NCBI GenBank assembly: GCA_038251535.1
Contig: JBBSBF010000003.1
Location: 1-58,974, forward strand
DNA length: 58,974 bases
Reading direction: 5' to 3'
From: Minisyncoccia bacterium
GTDB lineage: Bacteria > Patescibacteriota > Minisyncoccia > Phycocordibacterales > UBA9973
Below are positions 1 through 57,703 of this stretch, piece by piece; positions within the stretch are counted from its first letter, which is position 1; each line of letters opens with the position of its first letter. The position numbers and the translations under genes are program-made. The notes beneath the pieces are model-generated. The model was not told the origin of the DNA. It saw only the letters and a program-made list of their open reading frames with translations, and made no database searches.

Positions 1-30
1 AAAAAAGCCATCTCCGTAGAGTGGCTTTTA
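1..30 (-). terminator. intrinsic terminator of the NUDIX gene
   Basis: GCCA(T)CTC-CGTA-GAG(T)GGC hairpin followed by T6 on the minus strand. Confidence 0.6.
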
Positions 31-39
31 AAAATACAG

Positions 40-630
40 CTAAGGAAAAATATACTCTTTCTTTTCTGTAAGTAAAAAATTAAATAATACTGCCCTGGTT
101 CGATCTTCAGAAAAACTTCCATCCAAAAGAAGGTCATATACTTGGGTATAAGATAGCTCTACCTTTTCAATTACTTCGTCGTGTTGTAATTTTGCCTTAC
201 CTTCTTCGTATTCTGTTACTATGAAGTAATATAGATCATGTTCAACAGACGAAGAGGATTGGGAATGGTAGTACTTCCTAACAGCGGTGTCACTGTTCAC
301 AAGTAACCCAATTTCTTCTTCCAGCTCTCTTATAATAGCTTGTTCTAAAAAGTCAGAGTTGATAATAGCATCATAGCCATCTAACCACTCAATAAGAGAG
401 TCAAAAGACTTTCCACCTGTAAGCCGATAGTCCCATTCCATATTTAGATATTCTCTTTTTTCTTTCTGTAGAATAAGGCCCTTACCAGTATCTACAATTG
501 CTCTAACGCCAGGAGGACGCCGATAGTATTCCTTTCTACCATTTTGCAATACCTGACCAAGTAGGCCATTGAAAATGACACGATATTCCTTTCTAGCATC
601 GTATCCGTAATCAGTGTTATCTCTTTGCAT
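40..630 (-). CDS. NUDIX hydrolase family protein
   Basis: 196-aa ORF with a Nudix-box-like signature AIIRELEEEIGL (REx2EExGU) downstream of GGK. It has its own promoter (661-688) and hairpin terminator (1-30). Confidence 0.7.
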   Translation of the reverse strand: MQRDNTDYGYDARKEYRVIFNGLLGQVLQNGRKEYYRRPPGVRAIVDTGKGLILQKEKREYLNMEWDYRLTGGKSFDSLIEWLDGYDAIINSDFLEQAIIRELEEEIGLLVNSDTAVRKYYHSQSSSSVEHDLYYFIVTEYEEGKAKLQHDEVIEKVELSYTQVYDLLLDGSFSEDRTRAVLFNFLLTEKKEYIFP

Positions 631-660
631 AACTTATTTTTTTAATGATTTGTTTTGCCT

Positions 661-688
661 ATAATATCATTTATTTTATATTTGTCAA
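661..688 (-). promoter_or_regulatory. sigma70-type promoter TTGACA-N16-TATTAT (NUDIX gene)
   Basis: Reverse complement reads TTGACAAATATAAAATAAATGATATTAT, 30 nt upstream of the ATG at 630. Confidence 0.65.
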
Positions 689-700
689 TAATTCCGTATA

Positions 701-791
701 GGCTCAATACCTTTGCATGACATGATTAATTCTGCAAATTCCCTTATATTCCCCACTATCTCGTTCCACCTGTACACCCCTTGGGTCACAG
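701..791. repeat. intergenic repeat copy A (long form)
   Basis: ggctcaatacctttgcatgaca...aaattcccttatattccccactatctcgttccacctgtacaccccttgggtcacag. Aligns along its length with copy D. Confidence 0.8.
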
Positions 792-792
792 A

Positions 793-824
793 ATAAAAAA
801 ACACTGTCTTAAAAAAGACAGTGT
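793..824 (-). terminator. intrinsic terminator (gene 850-1302)
   Basis: 8-bp stem ACACTGTC/GACAGTGT followed by T7 on the minus strand. Confidence 0.7.
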
Positions 825-849
825 TGGTTTGGAAAAAATTAATTTCTCC

Positions 850-1302
850 TTACGATTTTACAAGCATGTTACTACGTTCCCACATTACTTTTTCCATAGA
901 GAGGTAGTCTGAAATTAAACCATCAGTAATCTGGAAAATTCCAAATTCGTGGACCTGTTTTCGGGACCCCGTAATAGCCAAACCCATATGTTCGTATTCT
1001 ATCCAGACACTACCCTGTTCCAACAAAGGATCCCAACATGTAAGTTTAATTTTAGCAGTGTACTCTTTGGTAGTAGAAAGCAAGGTTTCAAAGTATTTTT
1101 GTACCTCGTCCTTTCCTTCAATTTTTTTAGCGAAATTATCTCTTGTACCCCATTGGATACTCGGAGAAATGTTTTCCATGATGCGGTCAATTTTACGCAT
1201 TGTAATGCCTACATGAAGGTTGTCGAATAATTGGTAATGTTCCCTATAGGAAAAGTCACTAGTTTTTAAAGGACCAGAAATATGGTCAGCTACTGTTTTC
1301 AT
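850..1302 (-). CDS. hypothetical protein (possible NTF2/SnoaL-like fold)
   Basis: 150-aa ORF bracketed by a canonical promoter (1320-1347) and an intrinsic terminator (793-824). The fold guess comes only from size and alternating pattern. Confidence 0.55.
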   Translation of the reverse strand: MKTVADHISGPLKTSDFSYREHYQLFDNLHVGITMRKIDRIMENISPSIQWGTRDNFAKKIEGKDEVQKYFETLLSTTKEYTAKIKLTCWDPLLEQGSVWIEYEHMGLAITGSRKQVHEFGIFQITDGLISDYLSMEKVMWERSNMLVKS

Positions 1303-1319
1303 TTTTTATAGTTTTATAC

Positions 1320-1347
1320 ATTATACATAAATATATTATATTGTCAA
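1320..1347 (-). promoter_or_regulatory. promoter TTGACA-N16-TATAAT (gene 850-1302)
   Basis: Perfect consensus hexamers on the minus strand. Confidence 0.7.
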
Positions 1348-1364
1348 TATAAGCCGATTTTGTT

Positions 1365-1404
1365 AAACTCCCTCATATCCCCCACTATCAAGTTCCAATT
1401 TTTT
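1365..1404. repeat. intergenic repeat copy B (short form)
   Basis: aaactccctcatatcccccactatcaagttccaatttt. Shares the core with A, D and E and the tail with E. Confidence 0.75.
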
Positions 1405-1424
1405 CTTTTTTTTGGTAGAAGTAA

Positions 1425-1452
1425 ATAAAAAAAGATGGTATGATCCATCTTT
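1425..1452 (-). terminator. intrinsic terminator (gene 1468-1812)
   Basis: Stem AGATGG/CCATCT followed by T8 on the minus strand. Confidence 0.6.
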
Positions 1453-1467
1453 TAAAGAACACTGTGA

Positions 1468-1812
1468 CTACAGTTGAATAATCCTCTTTATTTCAATATT
1501 TTTTCTGTCTAATAAATTCTTCGATGATTTACCCCCTTTTACAACTCTCCATGATTGAATAACCATTTTAGACAAATCTGACTTTTCAATCACCGTGAGA
1601 TCATAGGCCATAGCGATACGGTTGAAATTTTCTTTACTTATTTTAATCGTCAAATTTTGTAGGATAAGATTCAAACAAATACATGATATAGGTCTGTTAT
1701 CCTTATCTAACATAAGTTTTTTATTAAGAAAATCTTCAACTGTAATCCCTCGGCTTATAAGGAAGTTGTGTAAAGCATTTCTTTCATTATCCATTTTAAA
1801 TATTTTCACCAT
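1468..1812 (-). CDS. hypothetical protein
   Basis: 114-aa AT-rich ORF. The predicted -10 (1811-1816) overlaps the first ATG, so the real start is probably ATG at 1794 (MDNERN...). Terminator at 1425-1452. Confidence 0.5.
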   Translation of the reverse strand: MVKIFKMDNERNALHNFLISRGITVEDFLNKKLMLDKDNRPISCICLNLILQNLTIKISKENFNRIAMAYDLTVIEKSDLSKMVIQSWRVVKGGKSSKNLLDRKNIEIKRIIQL

Positions 1813-1838
1813 CCTACCCTATTCATTAAAAAAGTCAA
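1811..1838 (-). promoter_or_regulatory. promoter TTGACT-N16-TAGGAT (gene 1468-1812)
   Basis: Hexamers read on the minus strand. The -10 overlaps the first ATG of the ORF. Confidence 0.5.
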
Positions 1839-1868
1839 GTTTTGTGCTAACCAAATGATATAAATTTA

Positions 1869-1888
1869 GCAACTTCCAATTTTACTCC
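1869..1888. repeat. intergenic repeat copy C (tail fragment only)
   Basis: gcaacttccaattttactcc resembles the tails of B and E (caagttctaattttac). Confidence 0.4.
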
Positions 1889-1910
1889 CTTAAGTCAAAG
1901 ATTTTGTAAA

Positions 1911-1944
1911 TAAAAAAGCACCATTTGTATTTCATAATGGCGCT
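1911..1944 (-). terminator. orphan intrinsic terminator
   Basis: Stem GCGCCATT/AATGGTGC followed by T6ATTT on the minus strand. No ORF lies directly upstream of it. Confidence 0.5.
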
Positions 1945-2032
1945 TTATATTTTTTAATTAAAGTTCAGAAACCGAACCATAAAAACAAGTTGTTCTGTGC
2001 GTGAGGGGTTAGCAAGAACCGTTCAGGCTAAA

Positions 2033-2058
2033 TAAAAAACCTCCCTTATGAAGGAGGC
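2033..2058 (-). terminator. intrinsic terminator (gene 2075-2947)
   Basis: Stem CCTCC-TT/AA-GGAGG followed by T6ATTT on the minus strand. Confidence 0.65.
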
Positions 2059-2074
2059 TTTAAAAATAACTTAA

Positions 2075-2947
2075 TCAGCTAACTAGTTTGATTTTTTCTA
2101 ATAAATCATAAATTTCAGTTCTTGCCTCAGAAAGCCCGGCATAATAAATGCCAGAATATCCCCCACCTACAAGACCTCCTTTTAATAGGAAATCTTCCGT
2201 CAGATTTTCAAGCTGTTTTACTTGAAAATCTGTTTTAGGAGTTTTATTTCTTCCTAATATGGTTTTCACTTCATGAGTAAGACGTTCGCCAATCTCTTTT
2301 GAATTATCCCACATGGCTTTTTCATGGAATTTTCCTGATGCAATTATAGAAAAAGCCGCATTATGTGGATATTTTTTGCTTTCACGATAATTAGACACAA
2401 GAAAATTAGAAAAATCATGATATCCTTTTGTTCTCAAAATCAGAAGAGATTGTCTTTTGTAGAGCTCGAGCATTTTACTCTCAATCATTACTGTCATCCA
2501 ACCAAAAGGATTTTCTCCAAATTTAGGTTTAAATTTGTAGACATAACCATCAGTACTTGCTTCTTTATCGAAAAGCATTGCTCGGACTACTCCCCAGTGC
2601 CTCATAAAAGCTTTTCTGTTGAAACAAGGACGATTGTCATTTGATTCATCAAAACGATCTAATTGATCAAGCTCATAAACACATCTTTCGGAGTAGAAAT
2701 TTACTAAATCAATATATCTTGATCCAAATAAATACCACCACAATTTAAAACCTGTTCGGCATTTTTCATGCGCCATACGGGCAAAGATGTATCCCTTCCA
2801 GCAATCTTCTAAAAATTGACAATCTTTGTAGCTGTTCTTGCGAAGTAGGTATTTTTTATACTGTACAAAATAGAGAACAGCAAAAACAAGAATCGCGGCG
2901 AGCGGTACGACATAGCTTCCCACAAGCCAAACTGAAATTGTTTTCAT
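2075..2947 (-). CDS. hypothetical membrane-anchored protein
   Basis: 290-aa ORF with an N-terminal hydrophobic helix (VWLVGSYVVPLAAILVFAVLYFV). Own promoter at 3013-3040 and terminator at 2033-2058. No recognisable catalytic motif. Confidence 0.6.
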   Translation of the reverse strand: MKTISVWLVGSYVVPLAAILVFAVLYFVQYKKYLLRKNSYKDCQFLEDCWKGYIFARMAHEKCRTGFKLWWYLFGSRYIDLVNFYSERCVYELDQLDRFDESNDNRPCFNRKAFMRHWGVVRAMLFDKEASTDGYVYKFKPKFGENPFGWMTVMIESKMLELYKRQSLLILRTKGYHDFSNFLVSNYRESKKYPHNAAFSIIASGKFHEKAMWDNSKEIGERLTHEVKTILGRNKTPKTDFQVKQLENLTEDFLLKGGLVGGGYSGIYYAGLSEARTEIYDLLEKIKLVS

Positions 2948-3012
2948 TATTGTATTTTTTAAGAACTTCGGATTTTTCTGCCGATACAGTTGCTAAAGTT
3001 TTTAGCTATTTA

Positions 3013-3040
3013 ATTATACATTATAACCATATAATGTCAA
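3013..3040 (-). promoter_or_regulatory. promoter TTGACA-N16-TATAAT (gene 2075-2947)
   Basis: Perfect hexamers. The -35 is embedded in the 8-bp inverted repeat CCATATAA/TTATATGG (3027-3048). Confidence 0.7.
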
Positions 3041-3052
3041 TTATATGGTTAT

Positions 3053-3214
3053 GGTTCAATACCTTTGCATCACAGCGCTATTTTCTGTAGTAATTCCTTT
3101 ATCTCCCCCCACTATCTGGTTCGAACTGTACACCCCTTTGCTCCCAATTTTTTAGTTTCGAAGAAACTGTTAAAATCGCAGTCCAGCGGAGCGATTAGCG
3201 AAGTCGGGTCACAG
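3053..3214. repeat. intergenic repeat copy D (long form, interrupted by a 65-bp insert at 3141-3205)
   Basis: ggttcaatacctttgcatcaca...taattcctttatctccccccactatctggttcgaactgtacacccctttg[insert]gggtcacag. Confidence 0.8.
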
Positions 3215-3225
3215 ATTTTGGAAAT

Positions 3226-3253
3226 AAAAAAGTACCGGTATTAATCCAGTACT
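3226..3253 (-). terminator. intrinsic terminator overlapping the stop of gene 3252-3743
   Basis: Stem AGTACTGG/CCGGTACT (one mismatch) followed by T6 on the minus strand. Confidence 0.5.
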
Positions 3254-3743
3254 ATATAAAAAACTCTCTTTCAACATGAACTGTTAAATCTTCCCCGACA
3301 TAAAACGTTGACGAAATCTGAGCTGCGGTTGGCCCATACACTTGCACATCGAAATGCGGAAATAATTCTTTGAACGGAAGAATAAAGTATTTTACAGAAT
3401 TTTTGTAAAATATTTTATTTTGAACTGTATTTATTCTTCCTCCCATGTAGTGCAAACTCAAAAGTTCTCGATATTTGGCAAGTTCTTTTATGAGATCAAA
3501 AAAATGTCCAGATACTATTTTAAGTGCACCATGGTGAAAATGAGGTCGAATATGAAATGCAGAAACGGCATAACGAGCAATAGGAAGATTGTGGTCATAT
3601 GTTTCTTTTCTTTTCCAATACAGTATCACACCAATACAACGATAGCATTCTGGAATGTACATCTCTTCAAAATCATCCTCACCATGAAAGTCTTGCGTGT
3701 AGCCTGAATACGCGGCATTCTCACCCAATGGTACTTCAATCAT
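3252..3743 (-). CDS. hypothetical protein
   Basis: 163-aa ORF with own promoter (3758-3785) and a hairpin overlapping the stop codon. No recognisable motif. Confidence 0.55.
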   Translation of the reverse strand: MIEVPLGENAAYSGYTQDFHGEDDFEEMYIPECYRCIGVILYWKRKETYDHNLPIARYAVSAFHIRPHFHHGALKIVSGHFFDLIKELAKYRELLSLHYMGGRINTVQNKIFYKNSVKYFILPFKELFPHFDVQVYGPTAAQISSTFYVGEDLTVHVEREFFI

Positions 3744-3757
3744 ATTTTTTTATTTTT

Positions 3758-3785
3758 ATACTACAAATATTTTGTTGTTTGTCAA
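3758..3785 (-). promoter_or_regulatory. promoter TTGACA-N16-TAGTAT (gene 3252-3743)
   Basis: Hexamers read on the minus strand. Confidence 0.6.
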
Positions 3786-3791
3786 TATTAC

Positions 3792-3831
3792 AAATTCCTT
3801 TATATTCCCCACTATCAAGTTCTAATTTTAC
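3792..3831. repeat. intergenic repeat copy E (short form)
   Basis: aaattcctttatattccccactatcaagttctaattttac. Confidence 0.8.
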
Positions 3832-3967
3832 TAAATTATTTAACAACTATTTCAAATACATACTGCACTACAAATGATGAGCCGTTTGAAATCCTTGTTG
3901 CATTTTCTTCATAAGTATAGTCTATCAAATATCTGCACAGTTTTACTAATGTGCAACCAGAGTTTTT

Positions 3968-3996
3968 TTGACAAAATAGTTCCAAAACTATAAAGT
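3968..3996 (+). promoter_or_regulatory. promoter TTGACA-N17-TAAAGT (gene 4019-4312)
   Basis: Hexamers read on the plus strand, 22 nt upstream of the ATG. Confidence 0.6.
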
Positions 3997-4018
3997 GAAC
4001 TAAAAAATAATAAGCTTT

Positions 4019-4312
4019 ATGAAAATTAAATTTTTGTTGATCGCAACCTGGATCTCATTTGTTCTGGCAATGATGTTCTTTTCACTCATCTTTCCTCAGT
4101 ACATCCCAATGAACCTAATCCCCTCAAACGACCTCACTAGATGGTACATGGCACTTTTTGGGTTGATCTTGGTTACCGTGGGGTTCAGTTTGTATATGTT
4201 CAAAAAAAGCATGACGAGCGATGACTCCAACGGTCCTCCCTACATAGTTTTAGGAATTCTTTTAATGGTGGTTGTTATTGTTCTTTTAGTAGTCCTTCTA
4301 TTTGTATTTTAA
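4019..4312 (+). CDS. small membrane protein (about 3 TM helices)
   Basis: 97-aa hydrophobic ORF with promoter TTGACA-N17-TAAAGT (3968-3996) and terminator at 4322-4350. Confidence 0.6.
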   Translation: MKIKFLLIATWISFVLAMMFFSLIFPQYIPMNLIPSNDLTRWYMALFGLILVTVGFSLYMFKKSMTSDDSNGPPYIVLGILLMVVVIVLLVVLLFVF

Positions 4313-4321
4313 ATGCATTGT

Positions 4322-4350
4322 GGTATCAGCTCTGATACCATTTTTATTTT
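4322..4350 (+). terminator. intrinsic terminator (gene 4019-4312)
   Basis: Stem GGTATCA/TGATACC followed by ATTTTTATTTT. Confidence 0.7.
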
Positions 4351-4376
4351 GTATACATTTGCATAAAAATAGAGTC

Positions 4377-4625
4377 TCAGTTATGAGACCCTATAGATGT
4401 CGTATCAAAATCTAATTTTTCTTCTTGTTCTGAATTTGTATTGTTGAATAAATTTATTTTTTTGCTTATCTCCTCCTTCGGTGGAACAGCGTTTTTGTTG
4501 CTGATGTACATGGTAAGGATTTGTGTTGCAAAAGAGGGGTCGTCACATTGGTTTGCCAATGCAAACAGTGCTTCATTGGACTTGTTTGAAAAAAGTTCTT
4601 CCATAAAAAATGTAAGGATGTCCAT
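4377..4625 (-). CDS. hypothetical protein
   Basis: The ORF-track entry 4377..4646 begins at GTG, upstream of the predicted -10. ATG at 4625 (MDILTFF...) lies 12 nt after TACGAT. A hairpin overlaps the stop. Confidence 0.45.
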   Translation of the reverse strand: MDILTFFMEELFSNKSNEALFALANQCDDPSFATQILTMYISNKNAVPPKEEISKKINLFNNTNSEQEEKLDFDTTSIGSHN

Positions 4626-4637
4626 ATTTTTTCCTTT

Positions 4638-4667
4638 ATCGTACACCCCTAGCTACACTATCGTCAA
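4638..4667 (-). promoter_or_regulatory. promoter TTGACG-N18-TACGAT (gene 4377-4625)
   Basis: Hexamers read on the minus strand. Spacer is 18 nt. Confidence 0.4.
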
Positions 4668-4675
4668 TATTCCCC

Positions 4676-12003: not shown

Positions 12004-12288
12004 TTATTCATTGAGTGTTTTGAGTAAATCACTATAACTTGAGCCACTTTTATCCTTCGTACTACCAGCGCCGAGTCCATATGCTTCTCCAAGTTGCGAA
12101 AGATATGGTTTGATCAATGAGATCGAGATAATACTAATGACGATCAATACGACCCAATAAAATACCTTCATCATCGTCGCTCGTCGTTGTACTCGATACA
12201 ACTTTCGCACCATAAACGTATTTTCATCCAATTTCTTTTCGATGGCTTGTAGTCGCTGGTCTATCTGTTGATTTGTTTGGGGATCCAT
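12004..12288 (-). CDS. hypothetical small membrane protein with N-terminal coiled segment
   Basis: ATG at 12288 (MDPQTNQQ...) sits 6 nt after TGCTATACT (12295-12303). The ORF-track start at 12312 lies upstream of that -10. One TM helix (VFYWVVLIVISIISISLI). Confidence 0.5.
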   Translation of the reverse strand: MDPQTNQQIDQRLQAIEKKLDENTFMVRKLYRVQRRATMMKVFYWVVLIVISIISISLIKPYLSQLGEAYGLGAGSTKDKSGSSYSDLLKTLNE

Positions 12289-57034: not shown

Positions 57035-57703
57035 TTATTTCTTCTGTTTTTGACGCCATTCTTCGATCTTTTTGTGATCACCTTCGGTCAATACTTTGGG
57101 GACTTTGTATTTTTTAGCCTTATATATAATGGTTTCCGGTCGAGTATATACTCGAGGGCTTGCAATACGGCTTTCTTCGACTGATTCACCTTTGCCCAGT
57201 ACTCCAGAGATTTGTCGAGCGATCGCATCGGTCATGATGAGTGCTGGGAGCTCCCCACCAGTGACCGTATAGTCTCCTACTGAATACTCGTCTGCTTTGA
57301 GGATTTTGCGCACTCGATCATCCACTCCTTCGTATCTCCCACATATAAAGACGATATCTGAATACTGTTTTGCAAACTTTGCAGCTACTACGTTTGTAAA
57401 CATTTTGCCCGATGGAGAAAGCATGATTACCTTTACATTCTTTTTTTTGTGCAAAGTTCGACTTTGCACACGCGGAAGATTTAGGTGAGCATATGCCCGT
57501 AAGATAGGTTCTGCTGTCATCACCATTCCAGGTCCTCCCCCATATGGACGTTCATCGGTTTTGTGATGCCTATCTTTGCTAAACACACGAATATTTTTGA
57601 CATCAAAACTCACGAGCTTTTTTTCAGCCGCACGCTTCAATATAGACTCCTGTACGTAGCCTTCGATCATTTCGGGAAATATGGTGAGGAAGTGGAATTT
57701 CAT
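57035..57703 (-). CDS. trmD: tRNA (guanine37-N1)-methyltransferase
   Basis: FHFLTIFPEM N-terminus, DERPYGGGPGMVM and VTGGELPALIMTDA motifs. 222 aa. Confidence 0.93.
   Translation of the reverse strand: MKFHFLTIFPEMIEGYVQESILKRAAEKKLVSFDVKNIRVFSKDRHHKTDERPYGGGPGMVMTAEPILRAYAHLNLPRVQSRTLHKKKNVKVIMLSPSGKMFTNVVAAKFAKQYSDIVFICGRYEGVDDRVRKILKADEYSVGDYTVTGGELPALIMTDAIARQISGVLGKGESVEESRIASPRVYTRPETIIYKAKKYKVPKVLTEGDHKKIEEWRQKQKK

Follow-up and report, generated by a model that had tools for sequence, protein, structure and literature searches.

Tandem islands with repeats of a tRNA end are known already. The ssrA islands of Dehalococcoides, which use a serine recombinase of ~540 amino acids (aa), have a further conserved motif next to each direct repeat, and some of their units lack integration genes and have been interpreted as cis-mobilizable elements (McMurdie et al., 2011; PMC3146451). 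An accretion model for cis-mobilizable elements of the ICESt1/ICESt3 type has been reviewed (PMC5704250). Here we describe an array of five minus-strand genes, small and unrelated (g1 to g5), at one end of the 58,974-nucleotide (nt) contig JBBSBF010000003.1 of a Minisyncoccia bacterium (GenBank assembly GCA_038251535.1); this whole stretch is referred to below as the window. The spacers of the array contain copies (A to E) of a repeat module that, when complete, has a head, a core and a tail. We find that the tail is a relic of the 3′ end of tRNA-Glu and its downstream flank, that the array lies in a gene-insertion hotspot and includes a gene, g4, with the structure of a self-contained unit, and that the core is a genome-private, differentially conserved block. 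The origin of the tail, the hotspot context and the privacy of the core go beyond the original prediction, which described the repeat from the letters of the sequence alone. With a probability of roughly 0.55, the modules represent paralogous junctions of a tRNA-Glu-linked insertion array in which the core is a retained protein-binding arm.

The core is 33 nt long and occurs in four spacers with pairwise identities of 74–88%, and a deleted copy occupies the fifth. A repeat search of the window groups the four core copies in one family. A 28-nt degenerate core pattern allowing up to three mismatches finds A, B and E (expected number 0.00 from 100 shuffles), and a 20-nt pattern recovers D too, along with one chance match in a coding gene at 57323. 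That match aside, the core is restricted to the 4-kb array within the 59-kb window and, there, to the spacers. The coordinates given in the original prediction hold for the four copies and the C fragment. C had been described as a tail only. A five-way alignment, in which all five spacers prove paralogous and align end to end (C included), reveals that both ends of its core are also kept (1862–1893), around a 16-nt internal deletion.

In the full junctions, A and D, the order on the plus strand is head, core, linker, tRNA relic, tRNA flank and terminator of the next gene; the relic comprises the last ~17 nt of tRNA-Glu and the flank ~18 nt downstream of it. The two heads (701–722 and 3053–3074) agree by eye at ~20 of 22 positions, a 40-nt pair that includes them (683–722 and 3035–3074) is 78% identical, and the tails align at 22 of 24 positions, which bears out the proposed A/D subfamily; between head and core, A and D have unalignable stretches of 13–17 nt. 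The D tail is indeed present, but it is split by a 66-nt insertion (3140–3205). Tail homology also extends further than had been recognised, running on into the T-run (3206–3232 and 1894–1922). Every copy was said to lie between a terminator and the −35 box of the next gene. The −35 side of this description stands, with core-to-−35 distances of 6, 17, 47 and 50 nt as previously given, and hairpin-plus-T terminators are found in four of the five spacers; E, however, faces a divergent promoter region and has no upstream terminator.

The tRNA origin of the tail emerges from comparison with loci of relatives (labelled L097, L098, L101, L102, L104, L105, L108, L112, L117, L120 and L122). Two of these, L120 and L122, whose DedA proteins are 74% and 69% identical to that of the window, are syntenic with it from MurJ to DedA, in the common order MurJ, LepA, tRNA-Arg, tRNA-Phe, HSP20, PrsW, ValS, TsaD, (Gmk), PCD, a 124-aa gene and DedA. 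All similarity to both loci ends at the DedA stop codon, with DNA and protein homology traceable to ~4716. Beyond DedA, L120, the closest of the syntenic relatives, contains three unrelated small genes that point at tRNA-Glu, and the last terminator leads directly into tRNA-Glu(ttc) (...TTTTTTATTTCCCAAATTTGTGACCC|TACGGGG...). Window positions 3206–3232 are the reverse complement of this L120 junction, TTTTTTATTTCCCAAATTTGTGACCC (12138–12164), at 25 of 27 positions, and in a blastn comparison with L120 this region gives the sole match left of DedA (90% over 30 nt). The same segment is 92–96% identical to junctions in L102 and L122. The relic in A (774–790), and that in D once the insert is removed, agree at 15 of 18 positions with the tRNA-Glu 3′ end of L102, where this gene is truncated by the contig end; the relic and flank of C are 96% identical to the L102 junction over 24 nt. 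In local alignments of the modules to tRNA-Glu, evaluated with shuffles, similarity is significant for the 3′ end alone. A direct repeat of the 3′ end of the target tRNA is thus present at the unit boundaries marked by A and D and degenerate in C and B.

The same joint separates different genes in relatives. A terminator-flank-TGTGACCC motif parts different genes at two places each in L102 and L122. Homology to the tRNA stops directly after TGTGACCC in six junctions, and the 66-nt insert of D sits at this same point. The insert itself matches L112 at 3380–3412, near the tRNA-Glu of that locus, at 27 of 27 positions and at 97% over 34 nt. In L102, L104 and L112, a tRNA-Glu with its 3′ end toward the genes lies 1–5 kb from g4 arrays. 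In L112, 20 nt of the tRNA-Glu 3′ end are present in a second, exact copy (3509–3528 and 3696–3715), as are 19 nt of the tRNA-Val 3′ end in L120 (13003–13021 and 13113–13131), so tRNA-end duplication is recurrent in this clade. These duplicates lie 110–187 nt from their genes and, judged by their sequence, look like attachment (att)-type scars of small or deleted insertions. The original prediction weighed three readings of the repeat: a recombination boundary, a shared operator or enhancer, and a relic of serial spacer duplication. In relatives, gene content changes exactly at the tail motif, and a recombination boundary is the best supported of the three for the tail, but not for the core.

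The genomic setting agrees in composition. GC content is 33–34% at positions 1–4000 compared with 40–48% elsewhere in the window, and the array stretch is atypical relative to the rest (0.33 compared with ~0.44). The window genes include rpoB, rpoC, leuS, valS, uvrA, uvrB, lepA, rpoD, dnaG and mreB, and those homologues of g4 and DedA whose source is named are all labelled Candidatus Paceibacterota or Pacebacteria. We therefore regard the window as chromosomal DNA of a candidate phyla radiation (CPR) bacterium of Paceibacterota type. Its tRNA genes are only tRNA-Phe, tRNA-Arg and tRNA-Thr; from the L120 layout, the tRNA-Glu gene is predicted to lie on the plus strand just beyond position 1.

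The clearest unit of the array is g4. Its homologues, at 55–78% identity, fall in 11 other Paceibacterota-type clusters, and the nine independent contexts that were compared all differ. DNA homology sets in at 3016–3046, level with the −35 box (3035–3040) or slightly within it, and ends at 2080–2094, near the stop codon; a terminator hairpin follows at the equivalent position in each context, with differing sequence. The g4 unit therefore consists of promoter, leader, gene and terminator, and the repeat module upstream is not part of it. Large serine recombinases are encoded near the g4 homologues of L104 and L097.

While the tail can be traced to relatives, the core cannot. Scans with exact core patterns gave 88 matches in IMG/VR, 2 in GTDB genomes (one genome per species) and 6 in JGI metagenomes, collections that do not include the source genome; all are single chance matches, none extends, and the genome and metagenome matches that were inspected lie in coding-looking DNA. 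Scans of viral contigs for the head and for the junction motif gave 0 matches. Within the array, core and tail have also fared differently. All core pairs are 74–88% identical, while the tails of A and D agree at 92% and either of them is only 42–46% identical to those of B and E. In the B tail, with a GC of 0.21, CCCC is replaced by TTTT and GGGTCACAG by GGTAGAAG; among copies, the GC content of the tail ranges from 0.61 down to 0.13. The C-run of the core survives in four copies against a 33% GC background, whereas that of the tail has decayed. The core is kept where the tail has decayed, and its maintenance is thus independent of the crossover relic. Its gene-strand sequence contains GGGRAT/GGRATT direct repeats ~10–11 nt apart, about one helical turn. 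These repeats, together with the conservation of the core and its presence beside every promoter, suggest a protein-binding site. The core probably still binds a protein, with a recombination accessory factor (Xis or arm-type) or a factor acting on the promoters as candidates. A reading of the core as a small open reading frame (ORF) was rejected, as the frames differ among copies and D is frameshifted.

Three other genomes possess a conserved block of 130–200 nt, module Z, between the tRNA-Glu relic and the next promoter (L102 1053–1245; L104 215–420, equal to L105 1915–2120; L122 12295–12430). Module Z carries TTCTCGWGATAGAACC, CCTTCTCGTGCG and two AAGTGACA repeats, and its copies align locally to one another with z-scores of 22–44. 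The core and head of the window show no similarity to module Z, although they are its positional counterparts.

In the mechanism that we favour, the region between DedA and the predicted tRNA-Glu of this CPR chromosome is a hotspot for gene insertion, and the array would have arisen by serial insertion of small promoter-gene-terminator units at the tRNA. Every insertion would leave a copy of the tRNA end as an att-type direct repeat, in the style of tandem or accreted tRNA and tmRNA islands. Core and head would form the element-side arm, which is not tRNA-derived and abuts each cassette promoter; we read them in this way because of the layout of the Dehalococcoides ssrA islands and because an arm is expected beside the repeated tRNA segment in a tandem array. 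B, C and E would be older or rearranged junctions whose tRNA relic has become AT-rich by drift. We infer site-specific recombination as the insertion mechanism.

Several observations weigh against this proposal. First, Pfam and NCBIfam searches detected no recombinase among the array proteins or the window ORFs of at least 150 aa, nearly all of which were searched, and the units, at 0.6–1.3 kb, are far below the size of typical integrative elements. Second, tRNA-Glu is outside the window, which ends 39 nt past the g1 stop codon. Third, the putative arm follows the host and not the cargo, since g4 homologues elsewhere have an unrelated module Z or none; core and head were found in no other genome scanned, so any travel with elements is putative. 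Fourth, the core tracks promoters (five of five spacers) better than it tracks the att relic (three of five). E has no recognisable crossover relic and B only a decayed one, and both retain the core. Finally, homologous recombination between spacers could yield an identical layout.

The association with promoters raises the alternative that the core is a shared operator or activator site, bound by one transcription factor that co-regulates the five promoters, with the tRNA relic incidental. This alternative is compatible with a hotspot origin and differs solely in the present role of the core. Its appeal is that each of the five promoters has the core or a remnant of it upstream, with no other occurrence in the 59 kb, that the core stays 74–88% identical beside a decayed tail, and that its gene-strand repeats have a spacing common for regulators that bind in tandem. 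The distances from GATAG to the −35 box (31, 42, 72 and 76 nt) place three of four copies roughly in helical phase, but with only four copies this argument is weak, and the core-to-−35 distance varies from 6 to 50 nt. Half of the site is missing in C, and the promoters are near consensus already. Searches of the array proteins detected no DNA-binding domain; the AlphaFold model of the 114-aa protein, g3, is unusable, with a predicted local distance difference test (pLDDT) score of 39. Differential conservation of the core favours an in-situ protein-binding role, as the original prediction had envisaged for an operator or enhancer, yet no regulator is identifiable, and we consider dedicated co-regulation possible but rather unlikely.

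A second alternative dispenses with function altogether. One ancestral spacer may have been duplicated locally, or spread when circular or linear DNA that carried it recombined homologously, and the core may look conserved merely through recent gene conversion or chance. Such a neutral history would fit the end-to-end alignment of the five spacers, the confinement of the module to one genome, an arm that follows the host instead of the cargo gene, and the presence in relatives of different, unrelated spacer repeats (one of 66 nt in L105, others in L117). It does not readily account for block-wise conservation: the cores of B and E are 85–88% identical to that of A, next to tails at 42%, 13–17 nt between head and core of A and D are unalignable, and the C-run of the core survives at 33% GC background while that of the tail has decayed. 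It would be unusual for gene conversion to affect tracts of only 33 nt in four copies. The serial spacer duplication raised by the original prediction is therefore borne out by the paralogy of all five spacers but leaves unexplained a core at 74–88% next to a tail at 42–46%, and a purely neutral relic seems doubtful to us.

As a third alternative, the modules could represent a structured RNA, a pseudo-tRNA or a mobile repeat of the repetitive extragenic palindromic (REP) or miniature inverted-repeat transposable element (MITE) type, each transcribed or transposed in one piece; one example would be a degenerate copy of tRNA-Glu with head and tail forming an acceptor stem. The first 7 nt of the head (GGCTCAA/GGTTCAA) can indeed pair with TTGGGTC of the tail before the discriminator base, and the 6:67 change relative to the tRNA-Glu of relatives leaves this pair intact. 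The GTTCNA of the core, which reads GGTTCGAA in D, is similar to a T-loop, and a 9-bp hairpin, CTGTGACCC/GGGGTGTACAG, is kept in A and encloses the insert in D. Against this, no relevant Rfam family was detected on either strand at gathering thresholds or at E≤1 (two unrelated sub-threshold matches), and folding z-scores of −0.9 to +1.2 for all modules on both strands indicate no excess stability. ARAGORN at default settings finds nothing in the array, and the alignment to tRNA-Glu is not significant past the 3′ end. Located between an upstream terminator and a downstream promoter, the module has no promoter for an independent transcript, and there are no terminal inverted repeats, target duplications or copies outside the 4-kb array. 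We regard this interpretation as highly improbable. Relaxed ARAGORN settings return 4–25 hits in the island, many in coding DNA; among them, a weak wrong-strand 'tRNA-Glu' in D was judged a false positive.

Read as an insertion array, the locus most closely resembles the Dehalococcoides ssrA islands. Both are low-GC, synteny-breaking stretches downstream of a stable-RNA gene (here the tRNA itself is predicted), with units that are bounded by direct repeats of the RNA-gene 3′ end and have a non-tRNA motif beside each repeat. Some units in both are without integration genes, and large serine recombinases occur in loci related to ours (L104 and L097). Unlike the ssrA islands, the array consists of single-gene units of 0.6–1.3 kb, each equipped with a consensus promoter and a terminator, the 59 kb contain neither an integrase nor an integration module, and the target tRNA is off the contig. 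The block adjacent to the repeat is also longer here (33 nt plus the 22-nt head), private to the genome, and outlasts the repeat.

The layout likewise recalls ICESt1/ICESt3 accretion, in which elements without int and xis keep their att sites and line up one after another at a target gene's 3′ end, with internal junctions that are att sites with element arms. Excision and mobilisation in the present array are putative. In contrast to accreted elements, the units are an order of magnitude smaller, two of five junctions are without a usable crossover, and no helper element was identified.

Integron cassette arrays share with this locus a one-directional series of small, unrelated and mostly orphan genes parted by a recurring non-coding element, at which the gene content of relatives differs. 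The imperfect palindrome of integrons (R″/L″–L′/R′) and the GTTRRRY boundary are absent here, as are intI and any other tyrosine recombinase from the window, and the recombination signal is tRNA-derived. Each cassette has a strong promoter (9–12 of 12 consensus matches) and a terminator of its own, whereas integron cassettes are mostly promoterless. We rejected a reading of the repeat as attC, since it shows no boundary consensus (GTTRRRY/RYYYAAC), no palindrome and no excess folding energy.

Two phage analogies apply to parts of the locus. In lambdoid phages, morons are promoter-gene-terminator units inserted between genes. The g4 unit is similarly an autonomous assembly of promoter, leader, gene and terminator that occurs in many neighbourhoods, with GC below its surroundings. 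In contrast to morons, it is not in a phage, phage collections give no matches, and the units are arrayed by a tRNA with repeated junctions. Lambda-type attP sites contain arm-type sites for integrase and Xis, which are short direct repeats located on the element side tens of nt from the crossover. The direct repeats of the core, about one helical turn apart and tens of nt from the crossover region, are comparable in arrangement; they differ in that no cognate tyrosine integrase or Xis was identified, and binding is putative. Serine recombinases, the only type seen in related loci, are not known to use arm sites.

What is unusual is the combination of one-gene cassettes with promoter and terminator, a hotspot that recurs in several CPR genomes, and a private arm that outlasts its att relic. 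The hotspot by tRNA-Glu recurs in at least four related genomes in addition to this locus, and its orphan genes arrive ready to express. CPR bacteria have tiny genomes, and their routes of gene gain are poorly understood. If the joints are active, they would constitute a compact gene-capture system in a phylum for which integrons and classical islands have hardly been described, and the core would offer a way to track down the recombinase or regulator. Should they prove to be scars only, the locus would be an ordinary tandem-island remnant, still useful for delimiting accessory DNA in CPR metagenome-assembled genomes. A broader version, which we consider improbable, would be an integron-like capture platform at tRNA-Glu in CPR/Paceibacterota: a recombinase acting in trans would use GGGTCACA as crossover together with a lineage-specific arm that doubles as promoter control (the 33-nt core here, module Z in other genomes), and single-gene cassettes with consensus promoter and terminator would be inserted and shuffled.

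Table 1. Positions of the array genes, repeat modules and associated features in the window.
Feature	Position	Strand	Description
Variable low-GC accessory stretch	1–4675	none	DedA stop codon (synteny end) to contig end
g1	40–630	−	196 aa, NUDIX domain; terminator 1–30; promoter 661–688
Module A head	701–722	+	GGCTCAATACCTTTGCATGACA; repeat family common to A and D
Module A core	736–768	+	gene strand GGAAC..GATAGTGGGGAATATAAGGGAATTT; GGGAAT-type direct repeats ~10 nt apart
Module A tail	769–791	+	linker CCTGT, then tRNA-Glu 3′-end relic ACACCCCTTGGGTCACA at 774–790
g2	850–1302	−	150 aa, SnoaL-like below Pfam cut-off; terminator 800–825; promoter 1320–1347
Module B core	1365–1397	+	85% identity to A
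Module B decayed tail and flank	1398–1426	+	ATTTTTTCTTTTTTTTGGTAGAAGTAAATAAAAAAAG; by-eye alignment with A, C and D
g3	1468–1812	−	114 aa, no family assigned; terminator 1430–1453; promoter 1811–1838
Module C core remnant	1862–1893	+	16-nt internal deletion; AATTTTACT extension common to E
Module C degenerate tRNA relic and flank	1894–1918	+	relic GTCAAAG, flank ATTTTGTAAATAAAAAAG; 90% to D 3208–3236
g4	2075–2947	−	290 aa, no known family; terminator 2036–2061; promoter 3013–3040 (12/12)
g4 promoter and 5′ leader region	2948–3040	−	promoter 3013–3040; strongly conserved leader 2954–3006
Module D head	3053–3074	+	same repeat family as A head
Module D core	3091–3125	+	1-nt insertion; ends GGTTCGAA; 74–79% to other cores
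Module D tail, left	3126–3139	+	CTGTACACCCCTTT; 13/13 with A 770–782 by eye
Insertion in module D tail	3140–3205	+	66 nt; two small hairpin modules, exactly at the tRNA-homology breakpoint
Module D tail, right, and flank	3206–3232	+	GGGTCACAG and flank ATTTTGGAAATAAAAAAG; copy of tRNA-Glu 3′ end and downstream flank
g5	3252–3743	−	163-aa orphan; terminator 3231–3253; promoter 3758–3785
Module E core	3792–3824	+	88% identity to A
Module E extension	3825–3847	+	ATTTTACT...; no recognisable tRNA relic; 42% to A/D tails; GC 0.13

Family searches of the array proteins (Pfam, PHROGs, PADLOC and PDB) return only the NUDIX domain of g1 and a weak SnoaL-like match for g2. Homologues of g5 number zero among 5.8 billion clusters, and phage collections searched with the island DNA and the g4 protein give no match. 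All five genes have a near-consensus promoter of the form TTGACA-N16-TATAAT, with 12, 12, 11, 10 and 9 of 12 matches; that of g1 (11/12) reads TTGACA-N16-TATTAT and includes a TG. The g2 and g4 promoters have a common extended form with TG before TATAAT (..ATGTATAAT..), which is also kept in the g4 homologues of L097, L101, L102 and L104, and are unusually perfect sigma-70-type promoters for accessory genes.

The 5′ leader of g4, TTAGCAACTGTATCGGCAGRAAAATCCGAAGTTCTTAAAAAAT, is 93–98% identical among homologues whose coding DNA is only 70–78% identical (L102 1275–1327; L104 460–502; L097 7950–7985; L101 7951–7994; L108 6809–6851; L112 790–825); L098 lacks this leader. Ahead of the leader lies a GCTAA...TTAGC hairpin, in which one pair changes on both sides in L101 and L098. 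By its pattern of conservation, the leader looks like an unrecognised cis-regulatory leader.

One of the two hairpins of the D insert contains TTTTAACAGTTTCTTCGAAACTAAAAA, and the other is of the type CTTCGC...GC..G. Both types recur, rearranged, beside tRNA-Glu and tRNA-Val in L112 (3375–3450, 3767–3792 and 4121–4192), where the second type occurs four times. From this distribution, they look like a REP-like element family of this clade.

Spacer C has tandem terminators: that of g4 itself and an orphan hairpin (1918–1943) beside the tRNA flank and relic. The ~90 nt of gene-less DNA between them have TTCTGAACTTT in common with the 66-nt repeat of L105 (copies at 883–948 and 1861–1926). The segment at 1918–2035 (minus strand) is probably the stump of a lost cassette.

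Outside the five spacers, the terminator hairpin of an 89-aa gene lies at 4369–4394, with arms ATAGGGTCTCA...TGAGACTCTAT, each of which resembles the tRNA-Glu 3′ end (TAGGGTCACA) at ~9 of 11 positions; it may be an additional tRNA-Glu relic, or chance. L102 and L112 each have a hairpin next to the tRNA that is flanked by the tRNA end in inverted copy. Genes of mobile elements are found beside the hotspot or g4 homologues in L122 (12485–20597), L104 (1517–2839) and L097 (9792–16343). Those of L122 include a terminase-like gene and an N6/N4 methyltransferase, and L097 encodes a reverse transcriptase and an AAA_25 protein besides its large serine recombinase.

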